Below are positions 24,244 through 31,871 of a DNA stretch of 39,941 nucleotides, piece by piece; the stretch's first letter is position 1, and the number at the start of each line of letters is the position of its first letter. The position numbers and the translations under genes are program-made. Where the stretch lies: the NCBI GenBank assembly GCA_051382295.1, contig JBBCAW010000140.1, forward strand, positions 1-39,941. Reading direction: 5' to 3'. Below the pieces are notes generated by a model that did no database searches, was not told where the DNA came from, and worked only from the letters and a program-made list of their open reading frames with translations. This DNA is from Bdellovibrionota bacterium FG-1. Lineage in GTDB: Bacteria > Bdellovibrionota > UBA1018.

Positions 24244-24477
24244 ATGAACCAAGCACGAATTGCTTTAACAACGGATGCTGTGCTCTTTGATAAATTAAAG
24301 TTTTTAACCTCGAAAGAGGCCGCGTTTTTGCTGCGGACGTCGGAAGGCCAGATTCGTAATCTGGTCTGGAGCGGAAGGCTTAGGGCCCTTCGCTACGGAA
24401 ACCGACTCCGCTTTCTCAGGTCTGACGTGGAAAAAGTCCTGAAGCCTACCTTTGAAGGAGGCAGTTATGGGAGTTAA
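24244..24477 (+). CDS. xis: Excisionase-family HTH protein
   Basis: FLTSKEAAFLLRTSEGQIRNLVWSGRLRALRYGNRLRFLRSDV; overlaps the integrase start. Confidence 0.88.
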   Translation: MNQARIALTTDAVLFDKLKFLTSKEAAFLLRTSEGQIRNLVWSGRLRALRYGNRLRFLRSDVEKVLKPTFEGGSYGS

Positions 24478-25621
24478 GTCTTACGTTGGAAAAAATGGTG
24501 AAACGCTTTGGCAGGTATTTGCATATGCGCGCGGACAAATGAATTCTGGGATCAAGGTCGAAAAGACCAAGACCGGATTCGCCAATGAGCGAGAAGCTCA
24601 GCGCATGTTCAAAGAACTCCAAAGGGAGTGCGAACGCGATGTCCTCAACAGAGAATCGCAAGGCTCGTCGTGGGGCGCAGTACTGGAGGCATGGTCAAAG
24701 AGCTTGCAAAACGAAAAGCTCGAAGATGCTACCCGGGTCGATTATATCGCCGCCGCTTACAACTATACTGCGAATTGGATCAAGCGACCGGCCGCCGACA
24801 TCACGTCGGTGGATGTTCGGGAACTTTTCACCCAACTCAAGGCACAGGGCCGGACGTATGAATTCATCAAGCGGATGAAAAACATGCTCAACCGGATTTT
24901 CCTGTTTGGTATGGAGCGGAGGCTCATCAAAGGTGCGGGGGATCGAACCCCGGTCTTTGGTGTTCAGATCGGTAGACCCGAGGAGAAGAAACCGGAGATC
25001 CTGACAATCGTGGAGATCCGGCACCTGCTCCAAGCAGCTCGGCAGTTGAACAGTGAGTGGTATTTTCACTGGTCTCTGGCCCTGCTCACCGGCATGCGAA
25101 ACGGCGAACTTTATGCGCTTCTCTGGACTGATGTGGATTTCGAAAGTAACACCATTTTGGTCAATAAAACCTACGATAGCCGCTTCAATGTCATCAAAGA
25201 CAAAACCAAGGGCGGCTATTGGCGAGTGGTTCCAATTTCAAAACAGTTACGAACGACCCTACTTGAGTTGAAGTCTCAAGCTAACGGACGCCCAACTGTT
25301 CTCCCCCGGCCACGCGAGTGGCAACGAGGGAGCCAGGCACAAGAACTGCGGAAGTTCTGCCTCGGAATCGGAATCCCCTCGGTACGGTTTCATACGTTGC
25401 GAGCTTGCTTCGCAACACAGTTGATCAGAAGTGGGGTGCCACCCATCCAGATTCAAAAGGTCTGTGGGTGGAAGGATCTCAAAACCATGCAACGCTATAT
25501 TCGTATGGCGGGGATTGAGATCGATGGGGCCACCGAAGCGCTGGACCTGCTGCCTGAATCGGCCATCATGGCCAGGGCAGCGGACCAGCTCGATGGCCCC
25601 GAAACCGCATCAGTCGAATAG
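24467..25621 (+). CDS. int: Tyrosine recombinase/integrase
   Basis: TGMRNGE (R), TK (K), FHTLR (HxxR), CGW (W), TMQRY (Y). SD AAGGAGG. Confidence 0.96.
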   Translation: MGVKSYVGKNGETLWQVFAYARGQMNSGIKVEKTKTGFANEREAQRMFKELQRECERDVLNRESQGSSWGAVLEAWSKSLQNEKLEDATRVDYIAAAYNYTANWIKRPAADITSVDVRELFTQLKAQGRTYEFIKRMKNMLNRIFLFGMERRLIKGAGDRTPVFGVQIGRPEEKKPEILTIVEIRHLLQAARQLNSEWYFHWSLALLTGMRNGELYALLWTDVDFESNTILVNKTYDSRFNVIKDKTKGGYWRVVPISKQLRTTLLELKSQANGRPTVLPRPREWQRGSQAQELRKFCLGIGIPSVRFHTLRACFATQLIRSGVPPIQIQKVCGWKDLKTMQRYIRMAGIEIDGATEALDLLPESAIMARAADQLDGPETASVE

Positions 25622-26218: not shown

Positions 26219-27574
26219 ATGAAACCAAATGGCAAACGTAGAGCGTCATGCAAACGCGGCAATTATCGTGAACATGACCCGTGGGTAAAAGACTTGGTCG
26301 CCCTGAGCGGAAAATGGAACCTTTTTCCAGATTCAGAGATCCCGCGTACTACCGCTCAATCCTGGATTAAAAAGGGATACCAGGGGCTCGACGCGAAGCT
26401 TCAATCCTTTGCTGAGCATTACTTGGATATGGATCGACAGCTTGCGCAATTGAAAAATAATGAGTTCCTTTTCAATGCCCGGATCAAGCTCATCACCGAA
26501 GCACAAGGGGCTTTTGGTGTTGAGATGAACACTAAAAAAATCCACTCTAAGAAAATCCGCGCAAAGATCCTTTCGTTGATCGAGCAGGCCATCCGAGACA
26601 AGGTTCCGCGGGCCGTTTGCCTATCGACACTGGGGCTCAGCCTATCACGCTATAAACGTTGGCGGCGTGAAGATAAAAGATGCCTGGCTACGCCCACTCG
26701 AACCTGCATGAAGCTCAGTGCATCAGCCCTGACACCAAAAGAAATATATACGATGCGCTACTATGTTACCTCAAAAAATTTCGCCCATTTTCCGATCAAG
26801 TCTCTTTGTTACTTTGCGAAGAGGCAAAAAAAATTATCATGCGCCTATTCGACCTGGTTGAAATATGTCAATGCATTGAATTGGAGACGGCCAAATCAGA
26901 AGCCAAAAAAAATCAGGCGAAAGAGAGGTGTTCGCGCCGCTCGTGCAAACGAAATCTGGCACCTGGATGTGAGTGTCATTGTATTGCCTGATCAAAGCAA
27001 AGTTTATATTCAGGCGGTTTTGGATAATTATTCACGATATGTCCTGGCGTGGAATGTCAGCAGAGAAAATAAAGGTATCAAAACGACTAAGCTGCTCATC
27101 AAGGCACTTCGGCAAAGTTATGCAGTACGTGGATTGAAAGTTCCTAATACTTACGTCGACGGCGGTACTGAAAATAACAATGAAGACGTGGAGACCCTCG
27201 TTCATTTGAAGTTGATTCAAAAAACAATTGCCCAAGTAGAGGTCGTTTTTTCAAACTCGATGATTGAACGCTTATTCCTCTCGCTAAAACACAATCACCT
27301 TTATCACCGGCCTCTACGCAATGTTAAAGGGGTTAAGCGGGAGGTCGACTTTTACCTTTCGGAGCATAACAACCGCATGCCGCACAGTGCGTTCACCGGT
27401 GAGACACCAAAAGAACGTTACCTCAATATGTGGGGTGATACCCATCGGCTCCAACTTAAAATTCATCATGAAGCGGCGAGGAAGCTTAGACTCACAGACA
27501 ACAAGCTCATTTTTTGCCAGGAATGTGGGCCAACTCCGGCCGACCGCAGATCAGATCAAGATCTTGTCCAATAA
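26219..27574 (+). CDS. DDE (rve) integrase/transposase, IS3/IS481-like
   Basis: NEIWHLD...VLDNYSRYVLAW...VDGGTEN...NSMIERLFLSLK...HNNRMPHSAF.GETP. Confidence 0.93.
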   Translation: MKPNGKRRASCKRGNYREHDPWVKDLVALSGKWNLFPDSEIPRTTAQSWIKKGYQGLDAKLQSFAEHYLDMDRQLAQLKNNEFLFNARIKLITEAQGAFGVEMNTKKIHSKKIRAKILSLIEQAIRDKVPRAVCLSTLGLSLSRYKRWRREDKRCLATPTRTCMKLSASALTPKEIYTMRYYVTSKNFAHFPIKSLCYFAKRQKKLSCAYSTWLKYVNALNWRRPNQKPKKIRRKRGVRAARANEIWHLDVSVIVLPDQSKVYIQAVLDNYSRYVLAWNVSRENKGIKTTKLLIKALRQSYAVRGLKVPNTYVDGGTENNNEDVETLVHLKLIQKTIAQVEVVFSNSMIERLFLSLKHNHLYHRPLRNVKGVKREVDFYLSEHNNRMPHSAFTGETPKERYLNMWGDTHRLQLKIHHEAARKLRLTDNKLIFCQECGPTPADRRSDQDLVQ

Positions 27575-27737: not shown

Positions 27738-28058
27738 TTAAGAAGCCCTCTTTTCATCTTCCCTGGCTTCGATTGAAAGACGAAGCCCCATAGCCGCCAA
27801 AAGAGACCGCAGGGTGGTGAGCTTCGGGTTTCCTGAGGTCGATAGCGCTTTGTAAAGGCTCTCGCGCCCTAGTTGTGCTCTGTCAGCAATGTCGCCCATT
27901 CCATGAGCTTTGGCGACGTCCCGAAGCGCAATGAGGAATAGCTCCTCGGCATCTTCGGTGTCGTCGTCTAAGTGGGCATTGAGATAGGCTGCGGCTTCTT
28001 CCGGTTTTTTTAGATCCTCGACGAGGTCCTTTTCATAATTTCGAGTTCGCTTTGGCAT
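27738..28058 (-). CDS. Addiction-module antidote protein (HTH, HI1420-like)
   Basis: AAAYLNA...ALRDVAKAHGM..IA...LGRESLYKALS..GNPKLTTL. SD GAGGTG. Confidence 0.92.
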   Translation of the reverse strand: MPKRTRNYEKDLVEDLKKPEEAAAYLNAHLDDDTEDAEELFLIALRDVAKAHGMGDIADRAQLGRESLYKALSTSGNPKLTTLRSLLAAMGLRLSIEAREDEKRAS

Positions 28059-28072
28059 ATCGATCACCTCTT

Positions 28073-28411
28073 TTAATTCGACTCCTCAGTCAAATAGTCT
28101 TTCCAGTACTCTTGTGCCTTTGTTATGTCGCGAGTTTGAGTGCCCTTGTCTCCGCCACAAAGCAAAACCACAATTCGATCACCTTCGTTTCCATAATAGA
28201 CCCGGTACCCAGGCCCAAAATCAATCTTCAGCTCCCAAACTCCCTGTCCCACATGCCGATTGTTTCCAAGATTTCCGATTCGAACTCGGTTGAGTCTTTT
28301 TCGAATAATCGCTCGTGCTTGAAGATCTTTCAGTTCATGAAGCCAATTTAAAAAAGGGCACTCACCGGTTACCGTCTCATATTCGAGTAATTCCTTTGGT
28401 GTCGGCTCCAT
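28073..28411 (-). CDS. RelE/ParE-family toxin (HigB/HI1419-like)
   Basis: GNLG...VGQGVWELKIDFGPGYRVYY...VLLCGGDK.TQ.RDI. Confidence 0.94.
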   Translation of the reverse strand: MEPTPKELLEYETVTGECPFLNWLHELKDLQARAIIRKRLNRVRIGNLGNNRHVGQGVWELKIDFGPGYRVYYGNEGDRIVVLLCGGDKGTQTRDITKAQEYWKDYLTEESN

Positions 28412-28416
28412 AATCA

Positions 28417-28445
28417 ATTGTATCTCCTAGGATACAGATTGTCAA
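28417..28445 (-). promoter_or_regulatory. Sigma-70 promoter and palindromic operator of the toxin-antidote operon
   Basis: TTGACA-17-TACAAT; inverted repeat TGTATC-N6-GATACA at 28419-28436. Confidence 0.82.
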
Positions 28446-28514: not shown

Positions 28515-29660
28515 TCACGCCCGTCGCTCCTCCCACCAAGCCGAAACCGCAAGCCCTCGAATCGCGTTGCCACAACCTCGGAGAGCCGGATAACGAGCCG
28601 CCACGGCCTCGATCCAGCTTTCTCGCTCAGCTTCGCCCCGAAACGCAGCCTCGAAGGCCTGCTCTCGTTCAAGTGCCTGGAGGTCCTCCTGCAATTTTTG
28701 GAGTTCTCCCTGTTGGCGGATCTCTGCCCTGGTTTGTTCGAGTTGCTCTTTTTGTTGCTTTTGCTCAGCCTGAAATTTCACTGACTTAAGCACCTCGGGC
28801 ATCGCTTTGGCTAAATACCCCATCGGAGAATGACAAGGCTCCCCTGAGTGAGGAAGTCCGCTCGTTGATAGAAAATCGAACGCAAGTTCGATTTCCGGAT
28901 CGTGGTAGTCTTGCCTTAATTCTAAAAAGCTTGCCCATTCGCTCTCCCTCTTTCGGACCGGCTTCAGAGATTCAAAATAGGTTTTCAAGTTTTCTGAAAT
29001 TTCCTGAGAGAGAGAGTTCTTGTTTTCTTGTTTTATTATATTTCTTTTTTCTCCCTCATTTTGAGGGACCTGTTGCCTCAAATTGAGGGAGGTGCTACCT
29101 CGTTTTGAGGGAGCTCCCACATCATTCTGAGGTACCTCAAATTGAGGCACCTTATTTTGAGCATCCTCGTTTTGAGGTTCCTTATTTTGAGGTGGCTCAC
29201 CTCGGCCTAGAAGGTTTTGCACCCACCAAATATTGCCGCGCTCAAAATCCACCCGCACCCGTCGAATCATCCCTGCTTCAACTAAGGACGACAGAATGCG
29301 CGAGACCGACGCCGAGGAGACTCCTGTGTTTCGACTCAGGTAACTCACCGATGCTCGAACCTCGCCGTTGCTATTTGGAAAACGCCAGGCCTGGGTATTC
29401 ATCCAAAGAAACACCCTAAAGCCATCTCCCGAGAGCGCCATGACTTGCGGGTTTTGAAGGGCCCCATGGGAGAGCGCAAAATAACCTTGATTGAAAGCTC
29501 CCTCTTTTTGAGGTTCCTTATTTTGAGGTGCCTCATTTTGAGGGAGCTTGGGTTGCGCACATATTGGCGGAGAAAAACCCAAATTTCTCGGAATCCGCAT
29601 CGGTTCGGCAACGTTCATCGCTTTTAAAGCGTCTTTAAGCTCGATTCTTGGCTTACTCAT
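28515..29660 (-). CDS. wHTH replication-initiator-like protein with internal iteron-like repeats
   Basis: YFALSH...LSGDGFRVFLWM...ASVSYLSRNTGVSSASVSRILSSLVEAGMIRR wHTH, PQNE-repeat linker, C-terminal SPMGYL domain. Layout resembles lambda-O/DnaD-type initiators. Confidence 0.7.
   Translation of the reverse strand: MSKPRIELKDALKAMNVAEPMRIPRNLGFSPPICAQPKLPQNEAPQNKEPQKEGAFNQGYFALSHGALQNPQVMALSGDGFRVFLWMNTQAWRFPNSNGEVRASVSYLSRNTGVSSASVSRILSSLVEAGMIRRVRVDFERGNIWWVQNLLGRGEPPQNKEPQNEDAQNKVPQFEVPQNDVGAPSKRGSTSLNLRQQVPQNEGEKRNIIKQENKNSLSQEISENLKTYFESLKPVRKRESEWASFLELRQDYHDPEIELAFDFLSTSGLPHSGEPCHSPMGYLAKAMPEVLKSVKFQAEQKQQKEQLEQTRAEIRQQGELQKLQEDLQALEREQAFEAAFRGEAERESWIEAVAARYPALRGCGNAIRGLAVSAWWEERRA
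29054..29192. repeat. Eight 13-bp palindromic repeats, consensus CCTCAWWWTGAGG
   Basis: Starts 29054, 29076, 29098, 29120 (22-bp period), then 29135, 29150, 29165, 29180 (15-bp period). Confidence 0.93.
29501..29543. repeat. Three more 13-bp palindromic repeats
   Basis: CCTCTTTTTGAGG 29501, CCTTATTTTGAGG 29516, CCTCATTTTGAGG 29531 (15-bp period). Confidence 0.93.
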
Positions 29661-30480
29661 GGGCCACCCCCGCGCTCACCAGTTGAAGCCTGGGAGAGGC
29701 TTCTTGTGCAGGCTTGAGGCGCTCAAGAATCTCTTTGGCCAGACTCAGGTAATCGAGTGCGCCGGAACTCTCGGGGGCATGTTGAAAGATCGTGCGTCCC
29801 AAGGCTGGGGCCTCCCTGAGTCTGACCGAGCGGCGAATTCGAGTTTCAAAAACTTGGCTTCCCAATGACGCAACTAGCTCGTCACGAATTTCTTCAGACA
29901 TTCGGGTTTGATCAAAAAGTGTCAGTAAAACCCCCAAAATCTTGAGTTCTGGGTTGTACCCTTGTTGAATTTCCTCGAGTTCAGCAAGGAGCTTTTTGAA
30001 TCCCGCCAGTCCGTAGAAGCTCGAGTCCACCGGAACCAAAACCCAATCGGAGGCATTGAAAGCCGAATTCATAAGTGGGCCAAATCCTGGCGCGTTATCA
30101 ATCAGGATAATGTCATAGATTGGCTTCAGGCGCTTGATTCGCTGGGCTAGGCGCAGCTCGCTGTTGGTCATCCCTGGCATTTCTCTTTCCAATGCGGCCA
30201 AAAGGGGCGTGGCGGGGATCAGATCCATTCCTGAACCCCGGTATATTGCGGCGGATTCGGGCAAAGTTTTGTTTCGCAAAAGATCCGCGATCGAAGTGTG
30301 GATTTGATCGAGTTGGATGCCCACCCCTTGGGTAGCATTTCCTTGTGGGTCTAAATCGATCATCAGGACCCGTAATCCCTGCGCGGCAAGGGCTTGAGCA
30401 AGATTGACGGTGGTCGTCGTTTTTCCGACGCCTCCTTTTTGGTTGGTGATCGCGATGACTGCGCTCTGAGGTAAATTCAT
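29653..30480 (-). CDS. parA: ParA/Soj-family ATPase
   Basis: NQKGGVGKTTT, IDLDPQGNAT, YDIILIDNAP, IRRSVRLREAP. ATG 30480 follows GGAGAG. Confidence 0.96.
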   Translation of the reverse strand: MNLPQSAVIAITNQKGGVGKTTTTVNLAQALAAQGLRVLMIDLDPQGNATQGVGIQLDQIHTSIADLLRNKTLPESAAIYRGSGMDLIPATPLLAALEREMPGMTNSELRLAQRIKRLKPIYDIILIDNAPGFGPLMNSAFNASDWVLVPVDSSFYGLAGFKKLLAELEEIQQGYNPELKILGVLLTLFDQTRMSEEIRDELVASLGSQVFETRIRRSVRLREAPALGRTIFQHAPESSGALDYLSLAKEILERLKPAQEASPRLQLVSAGVAHE

Positions 30481-30534
30481 TTTTCTCTCCATTCGTGGAT
30501 TGACATGACCGGCACATCTCTTTAAGAATGGAGA

Positions 30535-30663
30535 GGTGCCCGCCAGGAATCGCAATGCGACTCCGGTGGTGGTTTGAGAATCAGCGGCCTATCCGCCAAG
30601 AAAAGACGCTGACTCGATTGGAAAAATTTAAGACGCCCGGAGATGACCCTCCGGGCTTTTTTT
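30535..30663 (+). ncRNA. Putative ~125-nt counter-transcribed antisense RNA to the parA-rep leader
   Basis: TTGACA at 30500-30505 with a weak -10 (AAGAAT 30524-30529), internal hairpins at 30545-30563 and 30581-30612, and a strong terminator. No gene on this strand needs that terminator. Confidence 0.55.
30635..30663 (+). terminator. Intrinsic terminator
   Basis: GCCCGGAG-ATGACC-CTCCGGGC-TTTTTTT. Confidence 0.88.
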
Positions 30664-30968
30664 ATTTATGGGGGAGGCATTGACTTCCTCCTCTTGTTGG
30701 TCGTTAATTCAGGCCTGGAATTGGATTGGCTTGCCGCCGTGGGCTCGCAGGATTGCGTAGCATTAGCGTAGCAAGGGATTCCGGACGTATTCAGAAAGAT
30801 AAGGAATTTTCTAGCGAGTTCTTGCGAGATTTGGAGAAGGTCTGAATGAGTAAAACCGGTACTTTCATCATGAAATTCAGCGGTTGCCCCTCTAATGGGG
30901 GAAGCACTACGGATGCGAAGGTCAGATAAAAAGGTATCAGGTTACTTCTTGATGCCCACCGCGTTAAG

Positions 30969-31871
30969 ATGACCAATCTTACGATGATAATCACTCAGCA
31001 AATGACGCAACCCGAACCCCTCATAGGCCGCGAAGACGAGCTACTCCATGTGCGAGCCTGCCTTCGCGCCCGCCGCAATGTCCTGCTCGAGGGTCCCGTT
31101 GGAGTGGGCAAAACCCAGCTCGCTTTGGCCGTTACGAAGGAAATGAACGTCCCCATTTTTCGAGTGGATGGGGATAGTCGATACTCCGAGCAAAAACTCG
31201 CCGGTTGGTTTGATCCGCCCGCGGTCATTCAAAAAGGCTTCACCGCCGCTGCTTTTATGGAAGGTCCTCTCGTCGAAGCGATGAGAAAAGGCGGCGTGCT
31301 ATTTATCAATGAGCTCAATCGCCTGCCCGAAGGTGTTCAGAACATTTTGCTGCCTGCTATCGATGAGCGGATGATTATCATCCCGCGACTCGGCGAAATT
31401 CGGGCCGCAGATGGCTTCTTAGTCATTGCCACTCAAAATCCCAAAGAATTTGTCGCGACCTCACATCTCAGTGAGGCCATCTTGGATCGCTTTGAGTTGG
31501 TGACGTTGGATTACCAATCCGAAGCCGACGAAATTAAAATCGTGTCGCAACAACTCAGTCGCGAGACTCTGGCGGCTGAGCTAACAAGGCTGGTCGTCGC
31601 ATCCGTCCACCTGGTCCGTGCCACACGGGTTGATCCCAGGATCAGACGAGGCGCTTCCATTCGCGCAGCTATCGCGATAGCCAAAATTGCGCGCGTGTTG
31701 ATGGAAGACGGACTTTCTTTCGATCCAGCCTTTGCCAAAGCCGCGCTATTGGCTCTTCCGACCCGAATCGAAATGGAGCGCGAAAACAGCGAATCCTCCG
31801 CCCATGCTGAAATAACTGCACTTCTGAGCCAAATGGCCCAAGAGGCCCTAAAAAAAAAGCCCCTCACCTAA
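30969..31871 (+). CDS. MoxR/CoxD-like AAA+ ATPase (frame-0 product)
   Basis: LEGPVGVGKT, LFINELNR, IATQNP, LSEAILDRF, GASIR. Confidence 0.93.
   Translation: MTNLTMIITQQMTQPEPLIGREDELLHVRACLRARRNVLLEGPVGVGKTQLALAVTKEMNVPIFRVDGDSRYSEQKLAGWFDPPAVIQKGFTAAAFMEGPLVEAMRKGGVLFINELNRLPEGVQNILLPAIDERMIIIPRLGEIRAADGFLVIATQNPKEFVATSHLSEAILDRFELVTLDYQSEADEIKIVSQQLSRETLAAELTRLVVASVHLVRATRVDPRIRRGASIRAAIAIAKIARVLMEDGLSFDPAFAKAALLALPTRIEMERENSESSAHAEITALLSQMAQEALKKKPLT
31850..31859 (+). other. A9G slippery site (A_AAA_AAG), candidate -1 frameshift or transcriptional slippage
   Basis: CTA AAA AAA AAG CCC CTC ACC TAA. The -1 frame is open from here through 32815. Confidence 0.7.

Follow-up and report, generated by a model that had tools for sequence, protein, structure and literature searches.

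Here we describe the 210-nt leader of a parA-rep operon on a 39,941-nt stretch of DNA (the window) from Bdellovibrionota bacterium FG-1 (GenBank assembly GCA_051382295.1, contig JBBCAW010000140.1), together with an RNA predicted to be transcribed antisense to it. In the reading that we favour, to which we give a probability of about 0.5, the antisense RNA would flip the leader from a hairpin (HP4) that holds an anti-Shine-Dalgarno sequence (anti-SD) to a helix that buries the ribosome-binding site (RBS) of parA. Judged by comparison of its copies, the leader with its predicted countertranscript RNA (ctRNA) is a real, conserved and previously undescribed family. Sequence features, conservation, covariation and strand bias are what we observe; production of the two RNAs, their pairing, the direction of the switch and its bearing on copy number are what we infer.

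Alternative pairings of the leader

The minus (mRNA) strand of the window reads GGCACCTCTCCATTCTTAAAGAGATGTGCC GGTCA TGTCAA TCCAC GAATGGAGAG AAAA ATG, the parA start codon being the ATG at 30480 and the GGAG of the Shine-Dalgarno (SD) sequence lying at 30490-30487. The anti-SD CTCTCCATTC and the SD region GAATGGAGAG form a perfect 10-nt inverted repeat, 100% complementary, with arms 31 nt apart, and an in-register 10-nt complement to the SD 10-mer was found in 7 of 20,000 mononucleotide shuffles of the 186-nt leader. The same anti-SD takes part in HP4, whose stem has 9 Watson-Crick pairs and one C.U mismatch, and which is present in the minimum-free-energy folds of both the 101-nt and the 241-nt leader. 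The 5' half of the anti-SD lies inside the HP4 stem and its 3' half in the HP4 loop, and the 3' half is the complement of most of the -10 box of the antisense promoter. Coordinates of all features are collected in Table 1.

An earlier sequence-only reading of this DNA had proposed the anti-SD and its complementarity to the SD, its alternative trapping in the hairpin GGCACCTCTC/GAGATGTGCC, and a plus strand promoter and terminator bounding a structured RNA of ~125 nt. The repeat search returned the perfect 10-nt match with the same coordinates and sequences, the hairpin is present where it had been placed, lies in the minimum-free-energy fold and covaries, and both the promoter and the terminator were found at their proposed sites and are conserved (see below).

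The leader as a conserved family

A BLAST search with the 201-nt leader gave two further copies in the genome of the window, and matches in 13 of 75 genomes of the family (E <= 0.01) and 15 of 116 genomes of the order (E <= 1e-4). A covariance model built on alignment A3 (19 copies, with hairpins HP2, HP3 and HP4 supplied as structure) returned 61 matches in 37 of the 116 order genomes, representing 8 of 12 families, with four of the matches in the genome of the window; a divergent copy found by BLAST (L021) fell short of the E <= 0.001 of the model. The alignment A4 used below comprises 55 of the 61 matches; omitted from it are a near-duplicate (G099), the four weakest matches and a copy truncated where its contig ends (G110:C365).

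The predicted antisense transcription unit

The antisense promoter is the only sigma-70-like promoter that the consensus scan returns in three loci, and the 701-nt region 30300-31000 contains 2 promoter-like sites, vs 0.6 +/- 0.7 in shuffles, with none on the minus strand. Transcription is predicted to start at about 30535-30537, 7 nt past the -10 box, as the usual spacing would have it. A 131-nt plus strand stretch folds into three hairpins (-47.2 kcal/mol, z = -2.73), a stability reached by 1 of 200 shuffles.

Both ends of this unit recur across the family, a part of their conservation being built into the search, since the covariance model itself rewards promoter and terminator motifs. Among the 55 copies the -35 hexamer is TTGACA in 48, TTGACG in 3, TTGACT in 2 and TTGAAC or TTGAAG in 2, and the spacer is 18 nt in 41 copies and 17 nt in 14. 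With the spacer set to 17-18 nt, the best -10 hexamer fits xAxxxT (A2 and T6) in 54 of 55 copies and is AAGAAT in 31. By alignment column, A2 and T6 are invariant in 55/55 and 54/55 copies while the three intervening positions vary, which is the signature of a -10 box. A terminator on the same strand as this promoter, opposite to the mRNA (a hairpin of <= -8 kcal/mol followed by at least 4 T), is present in 53 of 54 testable copies, ~125 nt from the promoter. From these recurring signals the antisense RNA is very probably real.

A small protein encoded by the plus strand RNA was considered and rejected: the 51-aa open reading frame (ORF) at 30528-30683 begins upstream of the predicted transcript start and has no Pfam match. 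The longest ORF within the predicted antisense RNA ranges from <10 to 47 aa over 54 copies (median 23), so no ORF of constant length is kept.

Covariation and the strand under selection

Within HP2, HP3 and HP4, 86.6% of 1658 A4 cells are paired, vs 70.9% in shuffles, percentages that lean towards structure because the model used to fit A4 to these hairpins was a sense-strand one, with a preference for pairs and G.U. Two-sided changes affect 248 cells, vs 74 +/- 7 in shuffles and 35-74 with the partner shifted by 1-3 columns, and 30 of the 31 pairs carry double changes (21.7 +/- 1.7 in shuffles). Taken singly, HP3 has 94.6% of its cells paired and two-sided changes in 10/10 pairs, HP4 has 88.4% and 9/10, and HP2 folds on its own in 18/18 copies with differing stem sequences. 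From an unfitted 18-sequence MAFFT alignment, RNAalifold already recovered HP3, HP4 and the hairpin of the terminator, 21 of their 29 pairs being compensated. The covariation check in homologous leaders that had been suggested for the sequence-only reading thus came out favourably, the three hairpins covarying strongly and the anti-SD:SD helix showing a modest signal only.

The strand under selection can be read from G.U cells, which pair on the mRNA strand only, and A.C cells, which pair on the other strand only. The counts of G.U vs A.C cells are 57 vs 13 in HP3, 71 vs 14 in HP4, 51 vs 15 in the anti-SD:SD helix and 57 vs 42 in HP2. By these counts HP3, HP4 and the SD helix serve the mRNA and HP2 serves both strands; this two-strand fit is as would be expected of a hairpin at which complementary RNAs first meet. 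The terminator hairpin has 79 G.U pairs in its antisense fold vs 29 in its sense fold, the antisense fold is better by 2.5 kcal/mol on average, and the T run is on the antisense strand only. Its strand bias indicates that the terminator serves the antisense transcript.

These counts bear on the possibility that there is no functional antisense RNA, and that the conserved motifs serve the sense leader, through binding of a protein or of ribosomes or perhaps as a mini-ORF attenuator, with TTGACA/AAGAAT as a by-product. This explanation would be in keeping with a G.U bias that favours the sense strand in HP3, HP4 and the anti-SD:SD helix, and with the SD-preceded mini-ORF ending in Pro-Pro-stop in 15 of 51 copies (see below), but it does not account for a terminator that folds better on the antisense strand and has its T run there alone in 53 of 54 copies, in loci (three scanned) whose sense strand lacks a terminator-like site. 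The -10 pattern, with invariant A2 and T6 around a variable middle, is moreover promoter-like and unlike that of a loop, and HP2 is equally good on both strands. We consider a purely sense-strand role quite improbable.

The anti-SD:SD helix

In the anti-SD:SD helix, 12 cells are changed on both sides, vs 5.6 +/- 2.0 in shuffles (0/500 as high), and the covariation score is 0.175 vs 0.152 (1/500 shuffles). Coordinated changes of the two arms include TATTC with GAATAGAG (in which the SD becomes AGAG), CATCT with AGATG, CCTCCATTT with AAATGGAGG, and CTTCATTC with GAATGAAG. The two central C-G pairs deviate nearly always to U.G (10 and 16 cells), with two cases of U-A. Position x6 (30530) is C or T in 55/55 copies, though it is part of the HP4 loop and does not belong to the -10 hexamer. 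The best single argument for the helix is the conservation of GAAU on the 5' side of the SD, which has no other evident reason.

The inverted repeat, perfect in the window, could instead be a DNA operator for a dimeric repressor (ParA, Rep or another protein), its arms 41 bp apart from centre to centre and the RNA pairing incidental. Autoregulation at inverted repeats is common in partition operons. Against an operator, the arms drift asymmetrically across the family, the 51 G.U cells breaking the DNA symmetry vs 15 A.C cells; any possible sense promoter would be upstream of them, and they bracket the antisense promoter; and the 275-aa ParA has no N-terminal DNA-binding domain in Pfam. A DNA operator is thus very unlikely.

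Folding of the leader with the antisense-covered part masked

The switch was modelled by folding leaders with the part covered by the antisense RNA made unavailable (masked). Full leaders were folded for 18 copies, two of which were mis-parsed and are excluded from the counts. When masked, 15 of the 16 correctly parsed copies have the anti-SD:SD helix as their minimum-free-energy fold. When the local region was folded in 54 copies, the median unpaired probability of GGAG went from 0.26 unmasked to 0.00 masked; after masking it was <0.2 in 44/54 copies, having dropped by >=0.3 in 12 and risen by >=0.3 in 0.

Several results weigh against the switch, in addition to the fitting of A4 noted above. 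The proportion of paired cells in the anti-SD:SD helix (87.3% of 529) is hardly above that of shuffles (86.2%; 23/500 reach the observed value), because both arms are conserved, and double changes occur in 5 of its 10 pairs only, a number reached by 52/500 shuffles. The arms are conserved for other reasons, one as the SD and the other as the -10 box on the opposite strand, so their conservation alone proves little. The copies are mutually related, and the majority come from metagenome-assembled genomes. The consensus scan (>=9/12 matches) gave no sense promoter in the window and two paralogous loci. As to the folds, the 16 unmasked full leaders adopt HP4 in 9 cases, the anti-SD:SD helix in 6 and neither in 1, the two folds lie within 0.2 kcal/mol of each other in the window, and only 6 of the 54 copies, when unmasked, leave the SD more likely unpaired than paired (probability >0.5). 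The SD being largely paired even when unmasked, equilibrium folding does not support a clean on/off switch. The claim of the sequence-only reading that the ctRNA shifts the leader into an SD-occluded fold therefore stands in one part, as masking drives the SD into the helix, and not in the other, the SD being mostly paired already. With an equilibrium 'on' state so unclear, the model requires HP4 to form first during transcription, an order that is plausible because the 3' arm of HP4 is made before the SD.

The same folds could be explained by an antisense RNA that represses parA-rep through duplex-triggered cleavage or decay of the leader, or through interference between converging polymerases, the anti-SD:SD helix being a constitutive damper independent of the antisense RNA. 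Conservation of the promoter and terminator would be expected here as well, the antisense promoter, with the anti-SD on one side and the SD on the other, is internal to the sense transcription unit, the SD is mostly paired in unmasked leaders (median 0.26, >0.5 in 6/54), and the anti-SD:SD helix is already the minimum-free-energy fold in 6/16 free leaders. A permanent helix is, however, hard to reconcile with HP4, which competes for the same nucleotides, covaries and carries the G.U bias of the mRNA strand. In addition, the antisense RNA is predicted to begin right at the border of the anti-SD in every copy, and masking never raised the accessibility of the SD by >=0.3 (0/54). We regard decay or interference as rather unlikely, and as the most serious competitor of the antisense-driven switch.

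Proposed mechanism

In the switch model, a sense RNA starting upstream of 30693 would fold co-transcriptionally into HP2, HP3 and HP4. HP4 would hold CUCUC of the anti-SD, leaving GGAG free for translation of ParA, and Rep would be translated by coupling to parA, as suggested by the overlap of the rep start with the parA stop. The antisense RNA would meet the UUGGCG loop of HP2 and zip through HP3, after which its 5' tail GUGCC would displace the identical 3' arm of HP4 from GGCAC. The released CUCUCCAUUC would then pair with GAAUGGAGAG, and initiation would drop. Because the -10 box overlaps the anti-SD, the geometry of the antisense 5' end is fixed in all copies, and because this predicted end abuts the anti-SD, opposite GGCAC, binding would strip only the base of HP4. 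The dose of the antisense gene would grow with the copy number of the element, giving negative feedback on replication of the excised island, and we infer copy-number control of the excised island as the role of the system.

A presumed sense transcript and an upstream mini-ORF

The sense-strand G.U bias of HP3 and HP4, together with a mini-ORF of conserved placement, indirectly suggests that a sense RNA covers the antisense region. On inspection, some copies have a candidate TCGACA-N16-(T/G/A)AGATT inside an inverted repeat ~150 nt upstream of the terminator, a sub-threshold site that is absent from the window.

The mini-ORF of the window (ATG CCT CCC CCA TAA, MPPP*) stops 2 nt short of the A run in the terminator hairpin and is about 185-190 nt away from the parA ATG, on its upstream side. 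Of 51 copies, 15 have an ORF of <=12 aa that follows an SD and closes with Pro-Pro-stop, no more than 30 nt from the A run and mostly 2-4 nt before it, vs 1 of 105 short ORFs on the other strand that end in this way. Its variants include MPPKHKPP, MTSLDFKPP and MDPP, and other copies have ORFs as short as M-stop or MT-stop. The Pro-Pro-stop mini-ORF may be a stalling leader peptide. It is conceivable, although we think it distinctly unlikely, that a ribosome terminating slowly at Pro-Pro-stop is parked against the hairpin that forms the antisense terminator on one strand and the 5' edge of the antisense target on the other, and so determines whether the sense leader is accessible to the antisense RNA or reads through; in that same unlikely case the pausing would depend on elongation factor P or release factors. 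An attenuator acting in the sense direction at the terminator hairpin was rejected, the sense strand having no terminator-like site in the three loci scanned.

The operon and its variants

The first gene of the operon encodes a ParA/Soj partition ATPase by two criteria, namely the deviant Walker A motif of these enzymes (KGGxGK[ST], here KGGVGKT at the N-terminus) and its profile matches, to which NCBIfam adds ParA_partition (E = 4.3e-37, under the cut-off of that model). The second gene encodes a replication initiator-like protein with matches at E <= 1e-5 to five further replication-initiator PHROGs, families of phage and plasmid initiators, by which it is grouped with O-like/DnaD-like initiators; in Pfam it has helix-turn-helix matches only, below cut-off, and searches of NCBIfam and PDB sequences yielded nothing further. 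With these profile matches, the name parA-rep given to the operon in the sequence-only reading is a fair one. In the window, parA and rep overlap by 8 nt, counted from the rep ATG to the last base of the parA stop codon. Of 36 copies whose ParA is complete, 35 have such an overlap of the rep start with the parA stop, by 8 nt in 25 and by 4 nt in 10.

The leader is nearly always placed immediately before parA-rep: a ParA ORF with KGGVGKT directly follows it in 42 of 55 copies, and a different long ORF does so in 5, four of which are Rep homologues (E = 1e-83, 1e-33, 7e-17 and 7e-12) and the fifth not significant (E = 0.48). The parA-less leader-rep copies are L013:1565-2620, L071:533-1537, L075:534-1538 and L076:2-1000; in L013 the first residues of the ORF still resemble a ParA N-terminus, which suggests that parA was deleted there. 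The position of the leader directly before rep in these copies and the overlap of rep with parA would fit control of the initiator. In six loci (L019, L060, L007, L073, L006 and L063) the leader is followed by a truncated or frameshifted parA of 26-93 aa, with an N run in L007; from their sequences, these look like decaying modules that retain the leader.

Upstream of the leader, the window has a direct repeat TGCTACGC-TAA-TGCTACGC (mRNA strand, 30755-30773) about 90 nt upstream of the terminator. Similar pairs of TGCTACRC are present in some of the relatives compared (L009, L021, L022 and L025), and others have instead three CCTAC/CCTAT motifs ~11 nt apart and the inverted repeat TTTCCCG...CGGGAA. 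By their arrangement, these repeats could be iterons or operators.

Table 1. Features of the parA-rep leader and operon in the window (39,941 nt)
Feature	Position	Strand	Basis
SD region GAATGGAGAG, 3' partner of the anti-SD; GGAG 30490-30487	30485..30494	-	Repeat search; 87.3% paired in 55 copies
Anti-SD CTCTCCATTC	30526..30535	-	Repeat search and 55-copy alignment
HP4, trapping hairpin GGCACCTCTC / loop CATTCTTAAA / GAGATGTGCC	30511..30540	-	Leader fold and covariation
HP3 hairpin CCGGAGTCGC / ATT / GCGATTCC-T-GG	30543..30566	-	Covariation
HP2 hairpin, apical loop CUUGGCGG (UUGGCG 30599-30594), predicted first-contact ('kissing') site	30578..30615	-	Folds, covariation
Antisense promoter: -35 TTGACA 30500-30505, 18 nt spacer, -10 AAGAAT 30524-30529	30500..30529	+	Consensus scan, 10/12 matches
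Intrinsic terminator of the antisense RNA: stem 30635-30656, 8 pairs, 7 G-C, then T7 (TTTTTTTATT)	30635..30663	+	Terminator scan
Predicted antisense RNA (ctRNA), ~128 nt: 5' tail, HP3 and HP2 complements, terminator	30536..30663	+	Promoter, terminator, fold; ends predicted
Mini-ORF ATG CCT CCC CCA TAA (MPPP*) 30680-30666, SD GAGGAGG 30693-30687	30666..30693	-	Putative translation
parA, 275 aa partition ATPase, first gene of the operon	29653..30480	-	Pfam AAA_31 E = 4.5e-49; CbiA E = 1.5e-30
rep-like replication initiator gene, 381 aa, winged helix-turn-helix	28515..29660	-	PHROG 678 'replication initiation O-like' E = 5.3e-13

Genomic setting and distribution

The window is a complete 39.9-kb contig of a 4.44-Mb assembly in 158 contigs. 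Both of its ends carry housekeeping genes (urocanase, DEAD-box helicase, signal peptidase II and a sigma-54 activator), and its middle carries type IV secretion genes, an FtsK-like ATPase, a tyrosine integrase (24452-25621), an insertion sequence transposase and a HigBA-like pair, followed by rep and parA. The parA-rep element is an integrated conjugative island and not a plasmid. The HigB-like (Gp49) and HigA-like (dnstrm_HI1420) genes lie at 27738-28417, just downstream of rep, and an rve-family transposase lies at 26219-27574, near the downstream side of rep. Of 20 related loci scanned, 13 (L002, L003, L007, L010, L011, L013, L014, L020, L027, L030, L033, L034 and L047) have a tRNA (Gln, His, Asn, Arg) or transfer-messenger RNA (tmRNA) gene that precedes the leader by 200-300 nt and points the same way; a scan of the window gave no tRNA gene. 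The parA-rep module lies at the margin of elements that have integrated at tRNA or tmRNA genes.

Contigs with the leader motif belong to Bdellovibrionota, Oligoflexia and Bacteriovoracaceae genomes, 14 of 16 of them metagenome-assembled. An exact match to the leader motif is also present on two contigs (L081 and L085) binned as Pyrinomonadaceae and Candidatus Aerophobetes, one each, which could reflect mis-binning or transfer of the element beyond Bdellovibrionota. A search of the genome contigs for related loci with the Rep protein as query gave no relative, and a search of a plasmid database (blastn, distant mode) gave short matches in the coding part of parA only and none to the leader.

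The four leader copies in the genome of the window (contigs C140, C143, C52 and C60) have the HP2 hexaloops UUGGCG, UUAUCA, UUAGCA and UUGGCA. Divergence of the loops driven by incompatibility was considered and rejected: identical loops make up 5/28 within-genome and 202/1457 between-genome pairs, which is no difference.

Comparison with known countertranscript systems

The countertranscript families of Rfam include ctRNA_p42d, ctRNA_pND324, ctRNA_pT181, ctRNA_pGA1, CopA and RNAI. A cmscan of 29500-31500 on both strands (E <= 10) gave 7 weak matches, none to a countertranscript family; among them, MicC (22.6 bits vs 90) and Thr_leader (21.5 vs 55) both cover the terminator.

Of the known systems, the Staphylococcus-type plasmid pSK41 offers a parallel, as excerpts of PMC5703833 have its RNAI binding the leader and, it is proposed, inducing a stem-loop that sequesters the RBS. 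According to the same excerpts, both systems would share a countertranscript complementary to the leader well upstream of the start codon and an induced occlusion of the RBS, which is here a prediction (PMC5703833). Unlike pSK41, the present system has no sequence relation to it, is hosted by Bdellovibrionota on an integrated conjugative island, has an O-like/DnaD-like initiator without a RepA_N match in Pfam, and has parA as the first regulated gene, with rep overlapping the parA stop. In pT181 (RNAI) and pIP501 (RNAIII), a leader 'pre-emptor' is disabled by antisense binding and the induced helix is a terminator (PMC5703833). The alternative pairings of the parA-rep leader would follow the same pre-emptor logic, with the SD in the induced helix. 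The effect in pT181 and pIP501 is transcriptional, whereas the anti-SD:SD helix has no U run after it and the three loci have no terminator-like site on the sense strand.

In the repABC plasmid p42d of Rhizobium etli, a small antisense RNA decides by refolding whether the initiator SD is usable, and a partition ATPase and an initiator share one operon under an antisense RNA (PMC3155836), as they would here. The ctRNA gene of repABC, however, lies between repB and repC and acts on repC only, whereas the one described here lies upstream of parA; the present operon also lacks parB, and its match to RP-C (E = 0.0026, 18.0 bits) is below the 24.4 cut-off.

A further likeness is to the Inc RNA of I-complex plasmids (ColIb-P9, R64) and to CopA/CopT of IncFII, in which the mRNA-strand target stem-loop has a UUGGCG loop. 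The title of a 1998 paper by Asano et al. (J Biol Chem 273:11826) reportedly places 5'-UUGGCG-3' in the loop of the target stem-loop. In R64 (IncI1), a long hairpin on the rep-sense strand, ~125 nt before rep, is capped by CUUGGCGG, an 8-mer identical to the HP2 loop of the window, and among the 55 copies TTGGCG is at the HP2 apex of 20 and CGCCAA of 0. Hallmarks of the I-complex and IncFII systems are a leader peptide (repY or tap) translationally coupled to rep and a pseudoknot between the loop and the SD region. Unlike them, the parA-rep leader has no rep-coupled leader peptide beside the SD, and its initiator is of a different family. Inspection of the copies gave no consistent pseudoknot partner near the SD that covaries with the HP2 loop; an IncI-type pseudoknot between the HP2 loop and the SD flank was rejected, as CCGCCA follows HP4 in some copies but is not tracked by the loop sequence. 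The likeness is one of a shared loop motif, without homology. As the other defining features are missing and Rfam has no match, the leader appears to be a new family that works like known ones.

Significance

Antisense control of initiator synthesis is textbook knowledge for plasmids of enterobacteria, Firmicutes and rhizobia. A literature search, judged on titles and the openings of abstracts, gave no description of such control for Bdellovibrionota or for this type of integrated conjugative island. With at least 61 copies in 37 genomes, good covariation and no Rfam model, the leader is a ready-made RNA family, and it could serve as a repressor module that is compact and portable. Its more unusual part, provided that it is functional, would be the Pro-Pro-stop mini-ORF, and the gating by it considered above, if true, would tie replication of the island to the translational state of its predatory host. 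The four copies with four HP2 loops in the genome of the window offer a natural variant set for how co-resident elements of the same family avoid cross-talk. Through the predicted switch, partition and replication genes of the island would be throttled jointly from one leader.

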